Positions 17,790 to 64,000 of a DNA stretch of 64,000 nt are shown one piece after another. The DNA is from Candidatus Micrarchaeota archaeon (lineage in GTDB: Archaea; B1Sed10-29; B47-G15). Every line of letters starts with the position of its first letter. The first letter of the stretch is position 1. The DNA lies in NCBI GenBank assembly GCA_003660975.1, contig QMVG01000005.1:9963-73962 (forward strand). The letters are read 5' to 3'. The position numbers were made by a program, and so were the translations under genes. The notes beneath the pieces were generated by a model that saw nothing but the letters and a program-made list of their open reading frames with translations, made no database searches and was not told where the DNA came from.

Positions 17790-17830
17790 AAATAAAAATA
17801 GGGTTAGGGGGTTTTAAAGCTTATCCCTTC

Positions 17831-19480
17831 TCAGTACTCCATACCCATGCCGCCTTGCGGTCCGCCTGTTTCTGGTGCTGAGCTCTTCTTTGAAGCAGCA
17901 ATGATGTCGTCTATCTTCAGTATCATGTTCGCTGCCTCAGCTGCTGATGAAATGGCCTGACTTTTAACTTTAGCTGGCTCTATGACATCTATCTTGGACA
18001 TATCTCCTATGTCTGCTTTGTCTATGAAGACTCCTATATTTTTGTTTCCCTTTGCGTGTTCTGAACGCAGCTTTACTAGTGTGTCTATTGGGTCCATACC
18101 TGCGCTTTCAGCAAGGGTTCTTGGTATTATCTCAAGGGACTCAGCAAATGCCTCTATTGCAAGTTGTTCCCTGCCTCCTATTTTCTTTGCATAATCTCTT
18201 AATTTCACTGCAAGTGCTGTTTCAATAGCTCCTCCTCCATAGACAATCTTTCCCATTTCTATTGCAGATATGGCAGCTCCTATTGCGTCATTAACTGCTC
18301 TCTCTGCTTCATCTACAACGTGCTGGGTGCCTCCTCTTATTAATATTGTCACTGCCTTTGGGTCATTGCAGCCTTCAACAAATGTCATAGCTTCTCCTGC
18401 TATCTTCTTTTCTTCAACACTTTTCGCATAACCAAGGTCATCCTTGCTCAAATCGTTAACACTGGAGCTTATCTTTGCCCCAGTTGCCTTGGCCAACTTG
18501 TCCATATCGCTCTTCTTAACCCTACGAACAGCGAATATGCCTGCTTTTGCTAGATAGTGCTGGGCAATGTCATCTATTCCTTTCTGGCAGAAAAGCACGT
18601 TTGCTCCGCTTTCCACTATCTTGTCAACCATTTCCTTTAGCATTTTTTCTTCCTGTTCTATAAAGAGCTGTAGTTGCTCTGGAGAGGTTATGTTTATTTC
18701 AGCATCTGTTTCTGTCTTCTTAACCTCAAGTGCTGCGTCTAGCAGCGCAATCTTTGCATTTTCCACTTTCCTCGGCATGCCTGAATGGACTCTTTCCTTG
18801 TCAATTACTATGCCTTTTATGAGCTCTGAATCCTCAAGGTTGCCTCCCTGCTTCTTTTCTATTTTTATATAGTCCTGATTTATTGTTATGCTGTCTTTGC
18901 TTTCCTCAGCGACTTGCTTAACTGCATCCACTATTATCTTTGCCAATTTTTCCTTGCTTTTGCCTATTGTCCCTTTGCTCGCCATTGTTGTCATACAGAC
19001 CTTTACGAGTTTCTTTTCATCCTTTATATCTATTGGATCAGATATTTCGTTAAGCAGGTCAATTGCCTTTTCCTGGGCCATTGTGTATCCCTTGATTATT
19101 ATTGTTGGGTGAATCTCCTGGTCCAACAGGTTTTCAGCATGCTTAAGCAACTCCCCTGCTATTACCACTGCTGTTGTTGTTCCGTCTCCTGTTTCCTCAT
19201 CTTGTGTTTTTGCAACCTCTACAAGCATCTTTCCTGCTGGATGCTCTATATTCATTTCATCCAGAATGGTTGCTCCGTCATTTGTTATTGTTATGTCTCC
19301 TATCTCATCTACAAGCATTTTGTCCATGCCTTTTGGTCCCAAAGTTGACCTAACAGCATTTGCAACTGCTTTTGCAACCATTATGTTAATTCTCTGGGCA
19401 TCTCTCCCAATAACACGAGAACTGCCTTCTGGAAGAACAACTATTGGTTGTCCTGACAGCTGACCTCCTACTCCTGTCAT
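17831..19480 (-). CDS. ths: Thermosome (group II chaperonin) subunit
   Basis: [29 protein letters not shown]-type tail. Confidence 0.97.
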
Positions 19481-19521
19481 TTACATCACTCTCCTTTACA
19501 GTAAACATAAAAAATAAGGTT

Positions 19522-19956
19522 TCATTCAATATTGACCTTAAAGCCAGATGGCTTTTCTCTCGGCTCTTTCTTGTAAAGCGTTATTTGAAGGACTCCATTT
19601 TTCAGCGAAGCCTTGGTTTTCTCTGGGATCACCTCTGCTGGTAGCGTCATTGCTCTCCTAAAAGCCGAGCTGCTTCTCTCCCTATGGTAATATCCCTTCT
19701 CTGACTTTTCAAATCCCTCAGACCTCTTTGCATTTATAACAATGTAGTTTGGCTCTACCTCTATGTCTATGTCGTCCTTTTCAATGCCTGGCATGTCTGC
19801 TATTACTTTGATTGTATCTCCCTCATCTATGAGGTCCACTGCTGGTTGCTGGAAGTTCACTGACGGCAGTGGTCCTGACAGTTCTTTTTCCATCCTCTCA
19901 AAGACCTTATCCATCTCTTTTCTTATCCTCTCAAAGTCACTTAAGAAATCTATCAT
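19522..19956 (-). CDS. hsp20: Small heat shock protein Hsp20
   Basis: P.VDLID, ADMPG, ER....FRR...LP, A.LKNGVL.I; start chosen 7 nt after GGAGGT SD. Confidence 0.93.
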   Translation of the reverse strand: MIDFLSDFERIRKEMDKVFERMEKELSGPLPSVNFQQPAVDLIDEGDTIKVIADMPGIEKDDIDIEVEPNYIVINAKRSEGFEKSEKGYYHRERSSSAFRRAMTLPAEVIPEKTKASLKNGVLQITLYKKEPREKPSGFKVNIE

Positions 19957-19963
19957 AGGCATC

Positions 19964-19996
19964 ACCTCCTCCACATTTTTTCAAATGTGGGAAGGT
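19964..19996 (-). promoter_or_regulatory. SD-sequestering hairpin in the hsp20 5' UTR
   Basis: Minus strand ACCTTC-CCACATTT-GAAA-AAATGTGG-A-GGAGGT: 14-bp stem with GAAA tetraloop that pairs the SD. Confidence 0.55.
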
Positions 19997-20021
19997 TTTT
20001 CATATAAAATATACAATATAT

Positions 20022-20039
20022 TAAGTGGACATCCACTTA
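20022..20039. promoter_or_regulatory. Palindromic operator candidate adjoining the hsp20 TATA box
   Basis: TAAGTGGA-CA-TCCACTTA perfect 8-bp inverted repeat next to minus-strand CTTTATAT (~20047-20040). Confidence 0.55.
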
Positions 20040-20110
20040 TATAAAGCTTTCGATTTTGATGGGCATTCACTTAAATTGAAAGATTTTTATACTTTGCATT
20101 AGTAAGTTTA

Positions 20111-21388
20111 GTGATGATGAGAGCTATAAGCAAGAAAAGGCTCGACAGAATTGACGACCTTGTTTCTTTTTTGAACCAGCATAAAGATGGGCTTAGATAC
20201 GACCTTCTCAACAACTTTGCAAGGAGGCATGGCGTTTCATACGAAGTGGTTAAGCGAGATGCATTGTTACTTGCCTATGCCACTATACCTTCACATAGGG
20301 GATATAACCTAAAATATGTGCCAAAGGAATACAGAAAAGAGGTTAGATGGCTATGGAAGGAGATTTTTGGGATACGCGGGGGCAAAAAGAAAATGGACAG
20401 AGCAGCTGCGTGGAGAGCCTCTCATGTCTTTCTTGAGCACACTCCTTATATGGATTTAGAGAGGGTTAAAAGGGAGTTTGACTTGAAGCAGATGCTTGGT
20501 GGCGAATTTTACCAAAAAAACATAGATTGGCTGTCCGAAGAGGAAGCGCAGATCCATGAGATGCAGAGGGAGATGGCAAGAGAGTTAAAGAAAATTTCGG
20601 AAGAGAGCAAGGCCGAACTTGAAGAGCATATGGTGAGAAAGTACAGCGATGCTTGGCTAGTAATGGGGCGCAAGATTCACAAGGAACTGGCAGAGCTTAA
20701 GAAAGCAAAGGAGAGGGGTGCTTTCAGAGATGAGATAGAGTACCTACAAGCCATAAAAGACATATGGAGAGCAAACCTATATGAGGTAAAAGCAAGCAAA
20801 GATTATGAAGCATTTAGGACTAATTTGTTAAAAGCTTTGAGAAAGGAGTTCAAGATTCAGCACAAAGCTGTTGTCAAGAAAGGGGCAAATCCAAAAAAAC
20901 AGAGCACACCTCTTTCTTCCCTGTTTTTTAAAGCACTTAGAGAAACGCCTTTTCCCAAAGAAGCCAAATATGATGAAGAAGCTAGAAAAATGTGGCTTAC
21001 AAAACTGAATCAAAATTTTGAGAAACTTAAAAGGCAGTCATTAAAGGAAATTGTGCTAAAGGGAAAAAGCAAGATTGACAGCAGGGAGAGGTTATTTAAG
21101 GATATGAAGTTTATGATGAGAAGGTATAGACCAGGAAAGAAAGGGAACATACCTGTCCACATGTCAGACCAAATAAGAGTGTTGGCTGAAGCGTATGCTG
21201 AAAATCCAAAGAAATTGCTGTCTTCTCTTTCCTCTGTGCCAAAAGACAATTTCTTCAAGCTGATAGTCAAGGAAGGGATGAAAATAAGCGAAGCAGATTA
21301 TTATTATAACAGAGCGATGAGAGTCAGGAGCAGAATTCCTGTAAAGACATTGTTGCCTCGTTCAATAAGAAAAGGTAGAAGGCATTAG
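20111..21388 (+). CDS. Hypothetical basic, helical protein
   Basis: 425-aa ORF with own TATA; K/R-rich termini; no family recognised. Confidence 0.7.
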   Translation: MMMRAISKKRLDRIDDLVSFLNQHKDGLRYDLLNNFARRHGVSYEVVKRDALLLAYATIPSHRGYNLKYVPKEYRKEVRWLWKEIFGIRGGKKKMDRAAAWRASHVFLEHTPYMDLERVKREFDLKQMLGGEFYQKNIDWLSEEEAQIHEMQREMARELKKISEESKAELEEHMVRKYSDAWLVMGRKIHKELAELKKAKERGAFRDEIEYLQAIKDIWRANLYEVKASKDYEAFRTNLLKALRKEFKIQHKAVVKKGANPKKQSTPLSSLFFKALRETPFPKEAKYDEEARKMWLTKLNQNFEKLKRQSLKEIVLKGKSKIDSRERLFKDMKFMMRRYRPGKKGNIPVHMSDQIRVLAEAYAENPKKLLSSLSSVPKDNFFKLIVKEGMKISEADYYYNRAMRVRSRIPVKTLLPRSIRKGRRH

Positions 21389-22014
21389 AATTTTCTAATA
21401 TGCCTGTAAAACTCTTCAAGATTTGGGTAGTAGTAATCTGCATCATCATGATATCTGCCTATAGCAATTGCAGTGAGGCCTGAATTGTGGGCAAATTCTA
21501 TATCCACCTCAGAATCGCCAAGCATTAGAATATTTTTGTTTGGTCTTATCCCAAGGGCATTACAAACCTTTTCTGCTACAATCCTCTTTGGTTTGTGTTC
21601 ATCTTCATTGTAAAAGTCCCTTTCGTATATGTAATCAAAGTATTTCTCAATTTTGAAAAACCTCAAAACATTATGAACGCTTTCTGCGAGAGAGTTGCTT
21701 ACCAATGCCTTTGGTTTCTTAACCCTTCTCAAAAGCTTCAGGGCGCCTGGTGCCAGATATGCATATTTTGGCATTAATTCCTTCTTGGTTTTTACTATCA
21801 CCTCAAAAAGCACAGGTCGCCACACTGTTAAGTAATCTTCGGCAGTTATGGCAAGTTTCTCCAGTCTTTCTTCAACATCATGCCAGTAATTTTGATAGAA
21901 GTGCTCTGGATTTTCCACACCCATCACTTTTAAAAAACGTGTAACTATCTCTTGGTGTATTGGAATCCTCCAAAGCACCAACGTATTGTCCAAATCAAAA
22001 AATATAGCGTCCAT
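21385..22014 (-). CDS. HAD-superfamily hydrolase (phosphoglycolate-phosphatase-like)
   Basis: FFDLDNTL (motif I), VSNS, HKP, LGDSEVD; GGTGA SD before ATG 22014. Confidence 0.85.
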   Translation of the reverse strand: MDAIFFDLDNTLVLWRIPIHQEIVTRFLKVMGVENPEHFYQNYWHDVEERLEKLAITAEDYLTVWRPVLFEVIVKTKKELMPKYAYLAPGALKLLRRVKKPKALVSNSLAESVHNVLRFFKIEKYFDYIYERDFYNEDEHKPKRIVAEKVCNALGIRPNKNILMLGDSEVDIEFAHNSGLTAIAIGRYHDDADYYYPNLEEFYRHIRKF

Positions 22015-22404: not shown

Positions 22405-22914
22405 TCAGGCTCCCAAAAGCTCTGCTATCTTTCTCCCGAAATCCCTGGCAGCGTCAGGACCATTTCCTGTGATTATTTTGCCATCTACCTCAACACCCTT
22501 TCCAGTGTACACAGCACCTAACTCTTCAAGCTTAGACCTAACTGAAGGCCAAGCCGTGACCTTTCTTCCAGAAAGCAGGCCAGCATTTCCCAGTATTACA
22601 GGAGCTATGCAGATAGCTGCAAGCACTTTGCCTGTTTCGTGGGCCTTTCTGGCAATCTCCAGGGCTTCTTTGTCTGTAAAGTACTGGGCAGCTCCTGGAC
22701 CTCCCACAAAAACAACTGCATCATAATCATCTACCTGCAGTTCTGAAAGTTCAAATTCCGCCTCTGCCTTTGCCCCTAATTTACCTGTTCTTATGCCTCT
22801 TTGCTTTGAGGCTATTTTGACAGAAAAGCCGGCCTTTTCCAGTTCCTCTTTTGTGTGGAAAAGCTCTTCGTCCCTAAAGTTTTCAGGAGCTATAATCATC
22901 AGCACAGTTTTCAT
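22405..22914 (-). CDS. DJ-1/PfpI family protein
   Basis: FRDEE, VGGPGA, AAICIAP (catalytic Cys), ITGNGP. Confidence 0.9.
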   Translation of the reverse strand: MKTVLMIIAPENFRDEELFHTKEELEKAGFSVKIASKQRGIRTGKLGAKAEAEFELSELQVDDYDAVVFVGGPGAAQYFTDKEALEIARKAHETGKVLAAICIAPVILGNAGLLSGRKVTAWPSVRSKLEELGAVYTGKGVEVDGKIITGNGPDAARDFGRKIAELLGA

Positions 22915-24094: not shown

Positions 24095-24385
24095 GTGCTT
24101 CACTTTGCCTCAAAGATTCTAAGGTTTATTGATGACTCAGGAAGCGCTAGCACTTCAGAAATAGCTCGTTCTATAAATGCCTCTGAGCGCAGTGTTAGGT
24201 ATCACCTCAGTAAAATGAGGAAAAAAGGGCTGCTTGTTGAAGATATTAATTTAAATGACATGAGAATCAAAAGATATAAACGGTGTAATGCTCTAAAATA
24301 TCTGTTTGTCGGGTTGGCAGAGTGGTTATGCATCCGGCTGCAGACCGGAAGACGCGGGTTCGAATCCCGCGCCCGACTTAATTGA
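24095..24385 (+). CDS. Winged-HTH transcriptional regulator (3' end overlaps tRNA-Cys)
   Basis: IL......STSEIARSINASERSVRYHLSKMRKKGLL...D.R.KRY wHTH pattern. Confidence 0.65.
   Translation: MLHFASKILRFIDDSGSASTSEIARSINASERSVRYHLSKMRKKGLLVEDINLNDMRIKRYKRCNALKYLFVGLAEWLCIRLQTGRRGFESRARLN
24308..24378 (+). tRNA. tRNA-Cys (GCA)
   Basis: Acceptor GTCGGGT/GCCCGAC, anticodon arm TCCGG-CTGCAGA-CCGGA, GCGGG-TTCGAAT-CCCGC T-arm, U73 discriminator; CCA not encoded. Confidence 0.95.
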
Positions 24386-59679: not shown

Positions 59680-60078
59680 TTACCTGCGTCTCCTTTTAGA
59701 CCTTTTCTTCGTGCTCTTCTTCCTGGAGGATTTCTTCTTGGATTTCTTAGATTTCTTTGCTTTCTTCTTTACCTTTTTCTTCTTTGCCTTCTTCTTCACT
59801 GCTTTCTTCTTTGGCTTCTCAATCTTCTGGATTCCTATCTTCCTTACATTTGGCTTCCATACTGTGGATGACATCCACTCTGGCCTCTCAAATGGTGCAG
59901 GCACTTTCTTCCTGGAACCCTTGTAGATGTGGATCTTGTTTGTTCCTCTTTCTCTTAATCTAATGTCTGTGTATCCTCTGCTTGCTGCTTTAAGAGCTGC
60001 CTGTCTTGGCTGTCTGCCTGTAAAGACAGATACCTCTTTTCCTCCTCTTATCAGCACGAAGTATCTCTTCCCTGCCAA
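59680..60078 (-). CDS. Chromosomal protein MC1 with Lys-rich C-terminal tail
   Basis: FTGRQPRQAALKAA.RG, I.LRERGT.K.H.Y.G, P.WM...WKPNV.K; TTG start after GGAGGTG. Confidence 0.9.
   Translation of the reverse strand: MAGKRYFVLIRGGKEVSVFTGRQPRQAALKAASRGYTDIRLRERGTNKIHIYKGSRKKVPAPFERPEWMSSTVWKPNVRKIGIQKIEKPKKKAVKKKAKKKKVKKKAKKSKKSKKKSSRKKSTKKRSKRRRR

Positions 60079-63134: not shown

Positions 63135-64000
<866 letters not shown>

Follow-up and report, generated by a model that had tools for sequence, protein, structure and literature searches.

A strong hairpin over the Shine-Dalgarno site of hsp20 in a Micrarchaeota genome: a candidate archaeal RNA thermometer ahead of a thermosome gene

Hairpins that mask the Shine-Dalgarno (SD) site of a small heat-shock gene and open with heat are textbook material in Bacteria. 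Is the hairpin that immediately precedes hsp20 in a genome of Candidatus Micrarchaeota archaeon a device of the same kind, operating in an archaeon? The window in which it lies is a stretch of 64,000 nucleotides (nt) of contig QMVG01000005.1 (assembly GCA_003660975.1), and coordinates given without a contig are positions in this window; hsp20, encoding a small heat-shock protein (sHsp), is read from its minus strand and is followed by the gene for the thermosome. The answer that we put forward, with a probability of about 45%, is that the hairpin may act as an SD-masking zipper, restraining Hsp20 translation on a transcript shared with the thermosome gene and loosening as temperature rises. 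Beyond the sequence itself, the case is built on prediction in a single genome. The parts of the element, in the direction of transcription, are as follows.

19996-19964, minus strand: hairpin of 14 base pairs (bp; 6 + 8), with a GAAA loop, a bulged A and one U·G pair
19996-19991, minus strand: anti-SD arm ACCUUC
19990-19983, minus strand: 5' strand of the upper stem, CCACAUUU
19982-19979, minus strand: loop, GAAA
19978-19971, minus strand: 3' strand of the upper stem, AAAUGUGG
19970, minus strand: bulged A on the SD strand, the sole bulge
19970-19961, minus strand: SD sequence AGGAGGUGAU, a perfect 10-nt complement of the 3' end of the organism's own 16S rRNA, GATCACCTCCT
19969-19964, minus strand: SD core GGAGGU, paired with ACCUUC
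19963-19957, minus strand: GAUGCCU, between the SD core and the start codon
19956-19954, minus strand: hsp20 start codon AUG
19956-19522, minus strand: hsp20, 144 amino acids (aa); Pfam PF00011, Hsp20/alpha-crystallin, E 2.1e-22; NCBIfam archaeal Hsp20, E 1.9e-24, below the cut-off

The original prediction had described a 14-bp stem with a GNRA-type loop (GAAA), a bulged A and a G-U pair across the SD, and the same stem is returned by ViennaRNA, which confirms the structure. When a 56-nt piece is folded, the hairpin is both the minimum free energy (MFE) and the centroid structure (-19.0 kcal/mol at 37 °C, with an ensemble frequency of 0.55; -17.9 kcal/mol for the isolated hairpin), its z-score is -5.06, and none of 200 dinucleotide shuffles is equally stable; in a 121-nt context the stem is retained (z -2.99, again 0 of 200 shuffles). 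The overlap with the hsp20 SD is borne out as well, GGAGGU being part of the stem with a predicted pairing probability of 1.00 at 37 °C. Six of the ten SD nucleotides are in the stem, and the unpaired GAU of the SD is a possible toehold; facing the SD are only two U residues (19993 and 19992). The ATG at 19956 matches the N-termini of homologues with an offset of 0, and an SD:16S match of 10 nt is found in just 4 of the 842 SD-led open reading frames (ORFs) of the genome.

How unusual such an occluded SD is can be asked against the rest of the genome. The GC content of the bin is mixed, the large contigs C1-C5 and C7-C10 being close to 40%, with C6, C11, C12 and many small contigs at 48-56%, and therefore 39 core contigs (0.91 Mb, about 40% GC) were taken as background. 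The comparison covers the 842 SD-led ORFs, which are crude calls over all contigs, 568 of them in core contigs, and uses as opening cost the free energy needed to unpair the SD within positions -60 to +21. By this measure the hsp20 SD ranks 10th of 842 over all contigs and 4th of 568 in the core, at 37 and at 60 °C alike. The three core SDs that are costlier belong to a start internal to a GH57 gene, at profile positions 240-280, to a site in the rRNA spacer beside the 16S gene, and to a NusA-like KH gene; among these, the last alone has a start that looks genuine.

Two of the genes near the top of this ranking may be noted in their own right. In the NusA-like KH gene (C3:43540-44034, locus L072) the SD is strongly occluded by a 10-bp stem in which UUAUCACCC is paired with GGGUGAUGAG. 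The gene for ribosomal protein L1 (C4:41444-42076, locus L080) likewise has a strongly occluded SD and a genuine-looking start, at core rank 12. Ribosomal protein L1 is a target of translational autoregulation in Archaea, and its place in the ranking therefore suggests that the occlusion measure picks up real control elements.

A hairpin can act on translation only where it is transcribed, and the upstream region holds two candidate promoters, accompanied by two copies of a conserved box; the score cited for each box is from a position weight matrix (PWM) described below, and the recognition element of transcription factor B is abbreviated as BRE.

20073-20053, minus strand: distal box TAAGTGAATGCCCATCAAAAT, upstream of the BRE, 17.8 bits by the relatives' PWM
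20052-20038, minus strand: putative promoter TATA1, consisting of BRE CGAAAGC (20052-20046) and TATA element TTTATATA (20045-20038)
20039-20019, minus strand: proximal box TAAGTGGATGTCCACTTAATA, within which is the perfect palindrome TAAGTGGA-TG-TCCACTTA, 19.4 bits, operator-like, between TATA1 and the predicted start
About 20014, minus strand: predicted start from TATA1, about 24-27 nt past the TATA centre by archaeal promoter geometry, giving a leader of about 58 nt
20010-20002, minus strand: TATA2, a second TATA-like element, ATTTTATAT, without a purine-rich BRE

When the 161-nt upstream region is compared by BLAST with the 31 genomes of the class, a 19-nt stretch covering the BRE and TATA1 recurs in many of them at 95-100% identity, and two longer matches, in G004 and G007, both ahead of thermosome genes, continue into TAAGTGGA-TG-TCCACTTA, an inverted repeat of 8+8 nt with 100% complementarity. 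A 16-nt box pattern, with 0-1 mismatch allowed, has six matches in the 31 genomes, all at chaperonin loci: hsp20 of the genome under study (labelled G000), the thermosome genes of G004, G007, and G013, and, in G005 and G010, the spacer between the thermosome gene and a homologue of the 425-aa gene that diverges from hsp20 in G000. The strict core AT[AG]TCCA[CT] is present in 12 of 26 chaperonin promoter regions of the class, with 0.02-0.04 expected per 200 nt; these regions, in which the hsp20 upstream region of G000 is counted instead of that of its thermosome, represent seven families and include kin that are not independent. Box scores are from a strict-core PWM, made of 14 thermosome-promoter sites from relatives with G000 excluded; it replaced a matrix obtained by Gibbs sampling, into which SD-like AAAGGAGG sites had strayed. 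On that matrix, the 99.99th percentile of the G000 genome is 7.65 bits, to be set against 19.4 and 17.8 bits for the two boxes, and the further G000 sites at 16-21 bits are isolated, none of them flanking a TATA element. The consensus is AAAGTGGATATCCATCAATTT, with the core palindrome GTGGAT-ATCCAC, and sites are found about 10 nt upstream of the TATA element, just downstream of it, or in both places, often as two copies (thermosome loci L093, L095, L098, L100, L101, and L120-L138).

TATA1 is thus flanked by the box in the way that thermosome promoters of the class are, and its distance to the gene is similar too, 89 nt from the start of TATA1 to the hsp20 ATG as compared with 47-94 nt in the box-bearing thermosome promoters of relatives (71-94 nt in 10 of 11), where AT-rich leaders after the box are usual. 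TATA1 is therefore probably a genuine, conserved chaperonin promoter, and the whole hairpin is probably contained in its transcript, given a start at the predicted position near 20014. The box, in turn, probably serves as operator for a heat-shock regulator not yet described, and the two copies are probably bound by a protein that would provide a separate, transcriptional level of control; no description of the box, or of a palindrome in thermosome promoters of DPANN-like archaea, was found in the literature, supplements aside. The original prediction had also pointed to the second TATA-like element, which is indeed present in the sequence, and its caveat stands: if TATA2 is used, transcription is predicted to start at about 19982-19978, within the loop, and the anti-SD arm is lost. 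No box accompanies TATA2, nothing in 19950-20018 scoring above -2.8 bits, and the hairpin region is without a box score.

The genes downstream give the arrangement a possible rationale.

19521-19481, minus strand: 41-nt spacer from hsp20 to the thermosome gene, containing a run of six T (19514-19509) and the open thermosome SD GGAGAGUGAU
19480-17831, minus strand: thermosome (group II chaperonin), Pfam Cpn60_TCP1, E 1.4e-189, probably the second gene of the unit

The spacer is too short for a promoter and a leader, there is no box in the 220 nt ahead of the G000 thermosome gene, and the two genes, judged from their layout, are probably co-transcribed. The thermosome SD is open, its opening cost being 0.7 kcal/mol in G000 (class median 1.0, maximum 5.0, n=23), as against 9.9-10.3 kcal/mol for the hsp20 SD. 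As no box is found within 400 nt of the 12 hsp20 genes examined in class relatives, G000 appears peculiar in having hsp20 placed between a thermosome-type promoter and the thermosome gene, and this placement would supply a reason for gene-specific control at the level of translation: a constitutive chaperonin promoter would over-produce Hsp20, so that a translational hold-back would be useful, and the hairpin could supply it. The sequence of events would then be the following. The mRNA would start at the box-flanked TATA1 and carry a leader of about 58 nt with the hairpin, then hsp20, then the thermosome gene. Pairing of ACCUUC with GGAGGU would make a very strong SD thermodynamically costly to reach, so that little Hsp20 would be made at the growth temperature, with the promoter active all the same for the thermosome, whose SD is open. 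On heating, the weaker lower helix (6 bp, one U·G, beside the bulged A) would be the first to open, in zipper-like fashion, the fraction of open SDs would rise about ten-fold per 10 °C, and more Hsp20 would be translated, the control being specific to hsp20.

What temperatures are relevant must be judged from composition. The IVYWREL fraction of proteins rises with growth temperature according to the Zeldovich regression, and the values for this genome, 0.417-0.419, translate into an optimum of 55-57 °C. The GC content is 63-64% in the tRNAs and 56-57% in the 16S rRNA, compared with 40-43% in the genome, and the DNA runs that contain the stretch are labelled as sediment, seawater, and hydrothermal-vent metagenomes; no RNA run was found for 17800-21400. 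These proxies suggest a moderate thermophile rather than a hyperthermophile, with an optimum near 55 °C. For the 81-nt leader, the predicted behavior of the SD with temperature is as follows, opening costs being in kcal/mol and energies above 60 °C being extrapolated.

37 °C: MFE -21.0 kcal/mol, probability of the SD being paired 1.00, opening cost 10.3, open fraction 5.5e-8
60 °C: MFE -10.8 kcal/mol, probability 0.98, opening cost 6.2, open fraction 8.4e-5
70 °C: MFE -7.3 kcal/mol, probability 0.95, opening cost 4.6, open fraction 1.1e-3
75 °C: MFE -5.5 kcal/mol, probability 0.91, opening cost 3.9, open fraction 3.6e-3
80 °C: MFE -3.7 kcal/mol, probability 0.84, opening cost 3.2, open fraction 9.9e-3
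90 °C: MFE -0.18 kcal/mol, probability 0.58, opening cost 2.2, open fraction 4.6e-2

The hairpin thus stays the MFE structure of the leader to 90 °C, and folding across temperatures, which the original prediction had proposed as a check, gives a divided answer: the predicted opening does rise about ten-fold per 10 °C, and about 13-fold from 60 to 70 °C, but 95% of SDs would still be paired at 70 °C and the predicted melting midpoint is near 90 °C. In a short leader beginning at 19979 the predicted pairing of the SD falls from 0.71 at 37 °C to 0.57 at 60 °C (MFE -4.9 kcal/mol at 37 °C); in the long leader it is 0.98-1.00 up to 60 °C. Validated thermometers, as far as the accessible part of their description goes, have energies at their working temperatures of -5.5 kcal/mol (hsp17) and -11.4 kcal/mol (avashort; PMC4152365), a range that the stem is predicted to enter at 60-75 °C, which is plausible for the heat shock of an organism living at 55-60 °C.

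A number of observations weigh against a heat-sensing role. The predicted midpoint of about 90 °C is far from the estimated optimum of about 55 °C, and in a host at 55-60 °C the stem may simply remain closed; moreover, the SD:16S duplex melts too, so that net binding weakens on heating, with an energy of -6.0 at 37 °C and of -2.5 at 80 °C. With the stem still mostly closed at 60-75 °C and that duplex weakening, a fixed attenuator becomes a serious rival, that is, a hairpin that is transcribed and lowers Hsp20 relative to the thermosome, or stabilizes the mRNA, at a set-point that does not respond to temperature. An SD predicted to be 95-98% paired at 60-70 °C is what such a device would look like, and the open thermosome SD in the same operon would be equally well explained by fixed, discoordinate translation, but hairpins that uncover an SD on heating are classically found at sHsp genes, the open fraction would still increase about 13-fold between 60 and 70 °C, and the weak points, the U·G pair and the bulge, are placed right at the SD helix, just as in the validated zippers of the partially available source (PMC4152365); we regard a fixed set-point as unlikely. 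The run of six T after hsp20 could, in addition, terminate transcription, perhaps in part of the transcripts. The hairpin is, furthermore, confined to one genome: the nearest hsp20 relatives, in an order represented by 18 and a class represented by 31 genomes, are 46-49% identical, none of the 12 other hsp20 leaders compared in the class hides its SD (opening costs of 0.3-6.4 kcal/mol, none beyond its own shuffles), and 19964-19996 has no BLAST match in 30 relatives beyond chance-level words. Nor did two public contig collections (25 genome-contig loci, one of them a 28-residue fragment at 54%, and 13 metagenome-contig loci) provide a full-length hsp20 match above 41%, and, with no close relatives found, there is no covariation in support of the stem. 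The hairpin is a lineage-specific feature, and its opening cost (9.9 kcal/mol) is the highest among 36 distinct homologue leaders with an SD of at least 5 nt. The original thermometer proposal is thus supported in part: the structure and the SD overlap hold and the upstream promoter has been strengthened, but the proposal is weakened by the absence of a masked SD from the 12 other class leaders and by the predicted midpoint near 90 °C. Restriction to one genome is also what would be expected of a strong hairpin that overlaps the SD by accident and has no selected role. When the upstream part is shuffled with its composition preserved, 5 of 100 versions attain the observed cost; in the 0.91-Mb core this hairpin comes 29th in stability among simple hairpins of at least 12 pairs, with 28 others equal to it or stronger; GGAGG is promiscuous through G·U pairing; and by our own arithmetic about 0.5 genes genome-wide would be expected to have their SD inside such a hairpin by chance. 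The same arithmetic (29 hairpins of 33 nt in 1.82 Mb of core strand sequence), however, gives about 5e-4 for any one given gene, and the overlap falls on a gene class in which such control is classic, on the strongest SD class of the genome, and in an unusual promoter context. The chance that pairing of the 8-bp palindrome extends across the SD, with one bulge and one U·G, is 0.0076 with at most one G·U and 0.042 with G·U pairs unlimited (4.2% of random 7-mers extend by at least six pairs). On balance, we consider pure coincidence to be highly unlikely.

Two further alternatives concern the level of transcription. It may be that most transcripts, or those induced by heat, start near 19980 from TATA2 and are freely translated, the masked isoform being minor or a product of low temperature. 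TATA2, with its centre about 50 nt before the ATG, lies at the distance (-50 to -31) where TATA-like motifs are most frequent ahead of SD-led genes, which is a point against transcription of the hairpin, as is the score of a tRNA-derived PWM (5.6 for TATA2 versus 3.9 for TATA1), although this matrix, made from 38 tRNA upstream regions, is noisy, since many tRNA genes are not preceded by their own promoter, and does not separate the two elements. A temperature-dependent choice between a 65-nt and a 12-nt leader has, besides, been reported for an archaeal Hsp20 (PMC5378194, in the portion of the article at hand). TATA2, however, has neither a purine-rich BRE nor an adjoining box, in contrast to the textbook BRE and two conserved boxes of TATA1, the thermosome would come to depend on TATA2 as well, and AT-rich leaders following the box are the rule in relatives; a bypass of this kind thus seems decidedly unlikely, if somewhat less so than coincidence. 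Alternatively, the 8+4+8 palindrome CCACATTT-GAAA-AAATGTGG may be a DNA element, an operator of the Phr/HSR1 kind lying over the start site, with the RNA hairpin as a by-product. Archaeal sHsp genes are repressed via palindromes at or near the start, according to the available parts of PMC9133787 and PMC10746257, the palindrome would be centred on the predicted start if TATA2 is used, and GTGGA/CCAC is common to both palindromes of the locus. The second-costliest leader among the homologues (7.7 kcal/mol, attained by 4 of 100 shuffles), that of L018, from an archaeon outside the class, also has its SD abutted by an HSR1-type CTAAC-N5-GTTAG palindrome. Yet the hairpin palindrome is not a copy of the box by PWM and follows neither the Phr nor the HSR1 consensus, and no other promoter in the genome contains a copy with up to 3 mismatches, only 3 weak matches being found; genome-wide, copies of either palindrome of the locus are found at the locus itself only, a GTGGATG-N-CATCCAC palindrome at window position 59864 having been dropped as chance because it is inside a coding ORF. 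Finally, the extension over the SD by a bulge and a U·G pair, tolerated in RNA, breaks the symmetry expected of a DNA site, and we give this last explanation very little chance.

How does the SD-masking zipper proposed here compare with what has been described? In ROSE elements, the final hairpin has U(U/C)GCU as its anti-SD and a bulged G that is conserved, and fourU elements pair four consecutive U residues with the SD. Our element is like both in residing at a heat-shock gene, in sequestering the SD, and in having a bulge or a non-canonical pair in the SD helix, but it differs from ROSE in its anti-SD (ACCUUC), in its bulge, which is an A on the SD strand, and in consisting of one hairpin rather than two to four, and it differs from fourU in lacking UUUU, with its two U residues opposite the SD. 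When 19000-21000 was scanned with cmscan at E up to 10, none of the thermometer families of Rfam matched, and the 5 matches that did come up are weak and unrelated. Closer is the likeness to cyanobacterial sHsp thermometers, of which the available texts describe Synechocystis hsp17 (PMC3074152) as well as avashort, avalong, and Thermosynechococcus hspA, the last with a ribosome-binding site (RBS) that is blocked below 55 °C (PMC4152365). The hsp17 type, which is a functional class and not a sequence family, is characterized in those accounts by a single hairpin in a short leader of an sHsp gene, with near-perfect canonical pairing of the SD and a weakening internal irregularity, and here the SD is in near-perfect pairing (six pairs over GGAGGU, one of them U·G) beside the bulged A. 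The difference is that the type is bacterial and validated, that there is no sequence similarity, and that the hairpin examined here is far more stable at 37 °C (-19 kcal/mol, compared with the -5.5 to -11.4 given for the former).

Among Archaea, the closest parallel is the Hsp20 gene of Methanolobus psychrophilus R15 (Mpsy_0075), for which, in the part of the 2015 Sci Rep article that is accessible, two start sites were mapped by dRNA-seq, 5'-RACE, and primer extension, a 65-nt leader predicted to bury the RBS being favored at 8 °C and a 12-nt leader at 18 °C (PMC5378194). Going by the same portion of that article, that locus has tandem BRE/TATA-like promoters, of which TATA1 and TATA2, the latter without a BRE, are the candidate counterparts here; both loci have a long leader predicted to bury the RBS (65 nt there, a predicted 58 nt or so here), and in both a downstream start inside the structure would produce a short, open leader. 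The differences are that the methanogen is a psychrophile with mapped starts, as opposed to a probable thermophile with predicted ones, and that the present case involves a single near-perfect 14-bp hairpin and a promoter common to hsp20 and the thermosome; in both, the masking of the RBS is a predicted one. The statement of the original prediction that there is no well-established archaeal case must thus be modified, as an RBS-burying leader of an archaeal Hsp20 has been described, but it holds in the sense that this is a prediction on mapped transcripts, and no validated natural archaeal RNA thermometer was found in the literature, supplements aside. In line with this, the available text of a toolbox paper of 2024 describes a designed thermometer as the first put to use in any archaeon (PMC11549558), that of a 2022 review of archaeal sHsp regulation names Phr and HSR1 alone, thermometers being absent from it (PMC9133787), that of a further study raises Sulfolobus 5' untranslated regions as possible temperature elements, with no motif found (PMC10653856), and that of PMC9411577 and PMC10573289 has nothing to the point. 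The control of archaeal sHsp genes that is on record, from the parts of the sources at hand, involves the repressors Phr of Pyrococcus furiosus and HSR1 of Archaeoglobus fulgidus, which act at palindromes near the start (PMC9133787, PMC10746257, PMC6316755). The two boxes, sitting as they do between or near the TATA element and the start of chaperone genes, look like the functional equivalent of these operators in the present lineage, but AAAGTGGATATCCATCAATTT fits neither CTAAC-N5-GTTAG nor the TTTA/TGGTAA/AAAA pattern known from these partial texts, and neither CTAAC-N5-GTTAG (with up to 2 mismatches) nor TGGTAA occurs in 19950-20120 (consensus from the available part of PMC9133787). An arrangement opposite to masking is seen in the hsp20 leader of a metagenome-assembled Thermococcus genome (L031/L059), where GGAGG is displayed in the loop of a 7-bp hairpin (GGCACCG...UGGUGCC).

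If a zipper of the kind proposed were validated in a thermophilic archaeon with a small genome, RNA-based heat sensing would be seen to cross domains, to work with archaeal SD-dependent initiation, and possibly to operate at 60-80 °C. The operon would have its own logic, with a strong promoter for an always-needed chaperonin and a stress-only sHsp restrained at translation, and the conserved box would offer a handle on the transcriptional control of heat shock in this lineage. Should the hairpin be inert, all that is left is a strong hairpin in one metagenome-assembled genome. One feature that bears on the stem itself is a 13-codon ORF without an SD of its own, whose translation would unwind the stem.

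20003-19962, minus strand: 13-codon upstream ORF MKNLPTFEKMWRR, spanning the whole hairpin, with its UGA stop within the SD, 5 nt ahead of the hsp20 AUG

A candidate for the protein that binds the box may be encoded next to it.

20111-21388, plus strand: divergent 425-aa gene, without a Pfam family

Its homologues are found in 11 of the 31 class genomes, G000 included, and are divergent from the thermosome gene in G005 and G010, and an N-terminal motif, LRYD...FA...VSYETVKxD...LxYA, is conserved. The nearest structures to a model of the 120 N-terminal residues (pLDDT 86) are winged-helix DNA-binding domains, with a best Z of only 5.3 by VIA-align; the protein has NCBIfam matches only above E 0.09, a best PDB match by sequence at E 0.74, no usable match in the ESM Atlas, and none against the PDB by Foldseek at E up to 0.001. 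On the strength of its position and the modelled fold it may be regarded as a candidate box-binding regulator. The fuller picture, a natural archaeal thermometer that would uncouple Hsp20 from the thermosome on one transcript, a role in which no archaeal thermometer has been described, combined with an undescribed GTGGAT-ATCCAC operator, perhaps bound by the N-terminus of the 425-aa protein, into a two-level heat-shock control, joins several such elements, and it falls well short of probable.

Other genes and features of the genome may be mentioned. At 2.5-4 kb from hsp20 are a 96-aa ArsR/MarR-like winged-helix gene (24095-24385, plus strand) and a DJ-1/PfpI-family gene (22405-22914, minus strand). 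The former has no box in the 135 nt upstream, its PDB matches are weak (E 0.0075), and it was the best hit, weak at E 0.031, in a tblastn search with the ArsR-type regulator that adjoins hsp20 in the class relative L015, a query that is not Phr itself; no orthologue of Phr or HSR1 was identified. A second sHsp-like gene, on contig C4, has a GGTGAT SD and no hairpin. As to the assembly, it comprises 1.33 Mb in 130 contigs with a completeness of 89.7%, and is the sole member of its family and genus; the genomes of the order and class are mostly of 0.3-1.2 Mb. Contigs from four DNA runs cover 19450-20250 only by short, low-depth, identical pieces, with 0-1 differences in two of the runs, and one such metagenomic piece spans 19964-20168 with 0 differences, the hairpin being without variants. 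Duplicate sets of tRNA genes are present on some contigs (C108, C109), and mis-binned sequence is suggested despite a low contamination estimate. The 16S rRNA gene is split over two contig ends, window positions 63138-63952 (plus strand) corresponding to positions 4-828 of the model and C3 116603-117234 (minus strand) to positions 830-1467, which is probably an assembly break, with an intron or insertion at this point as the alternative.

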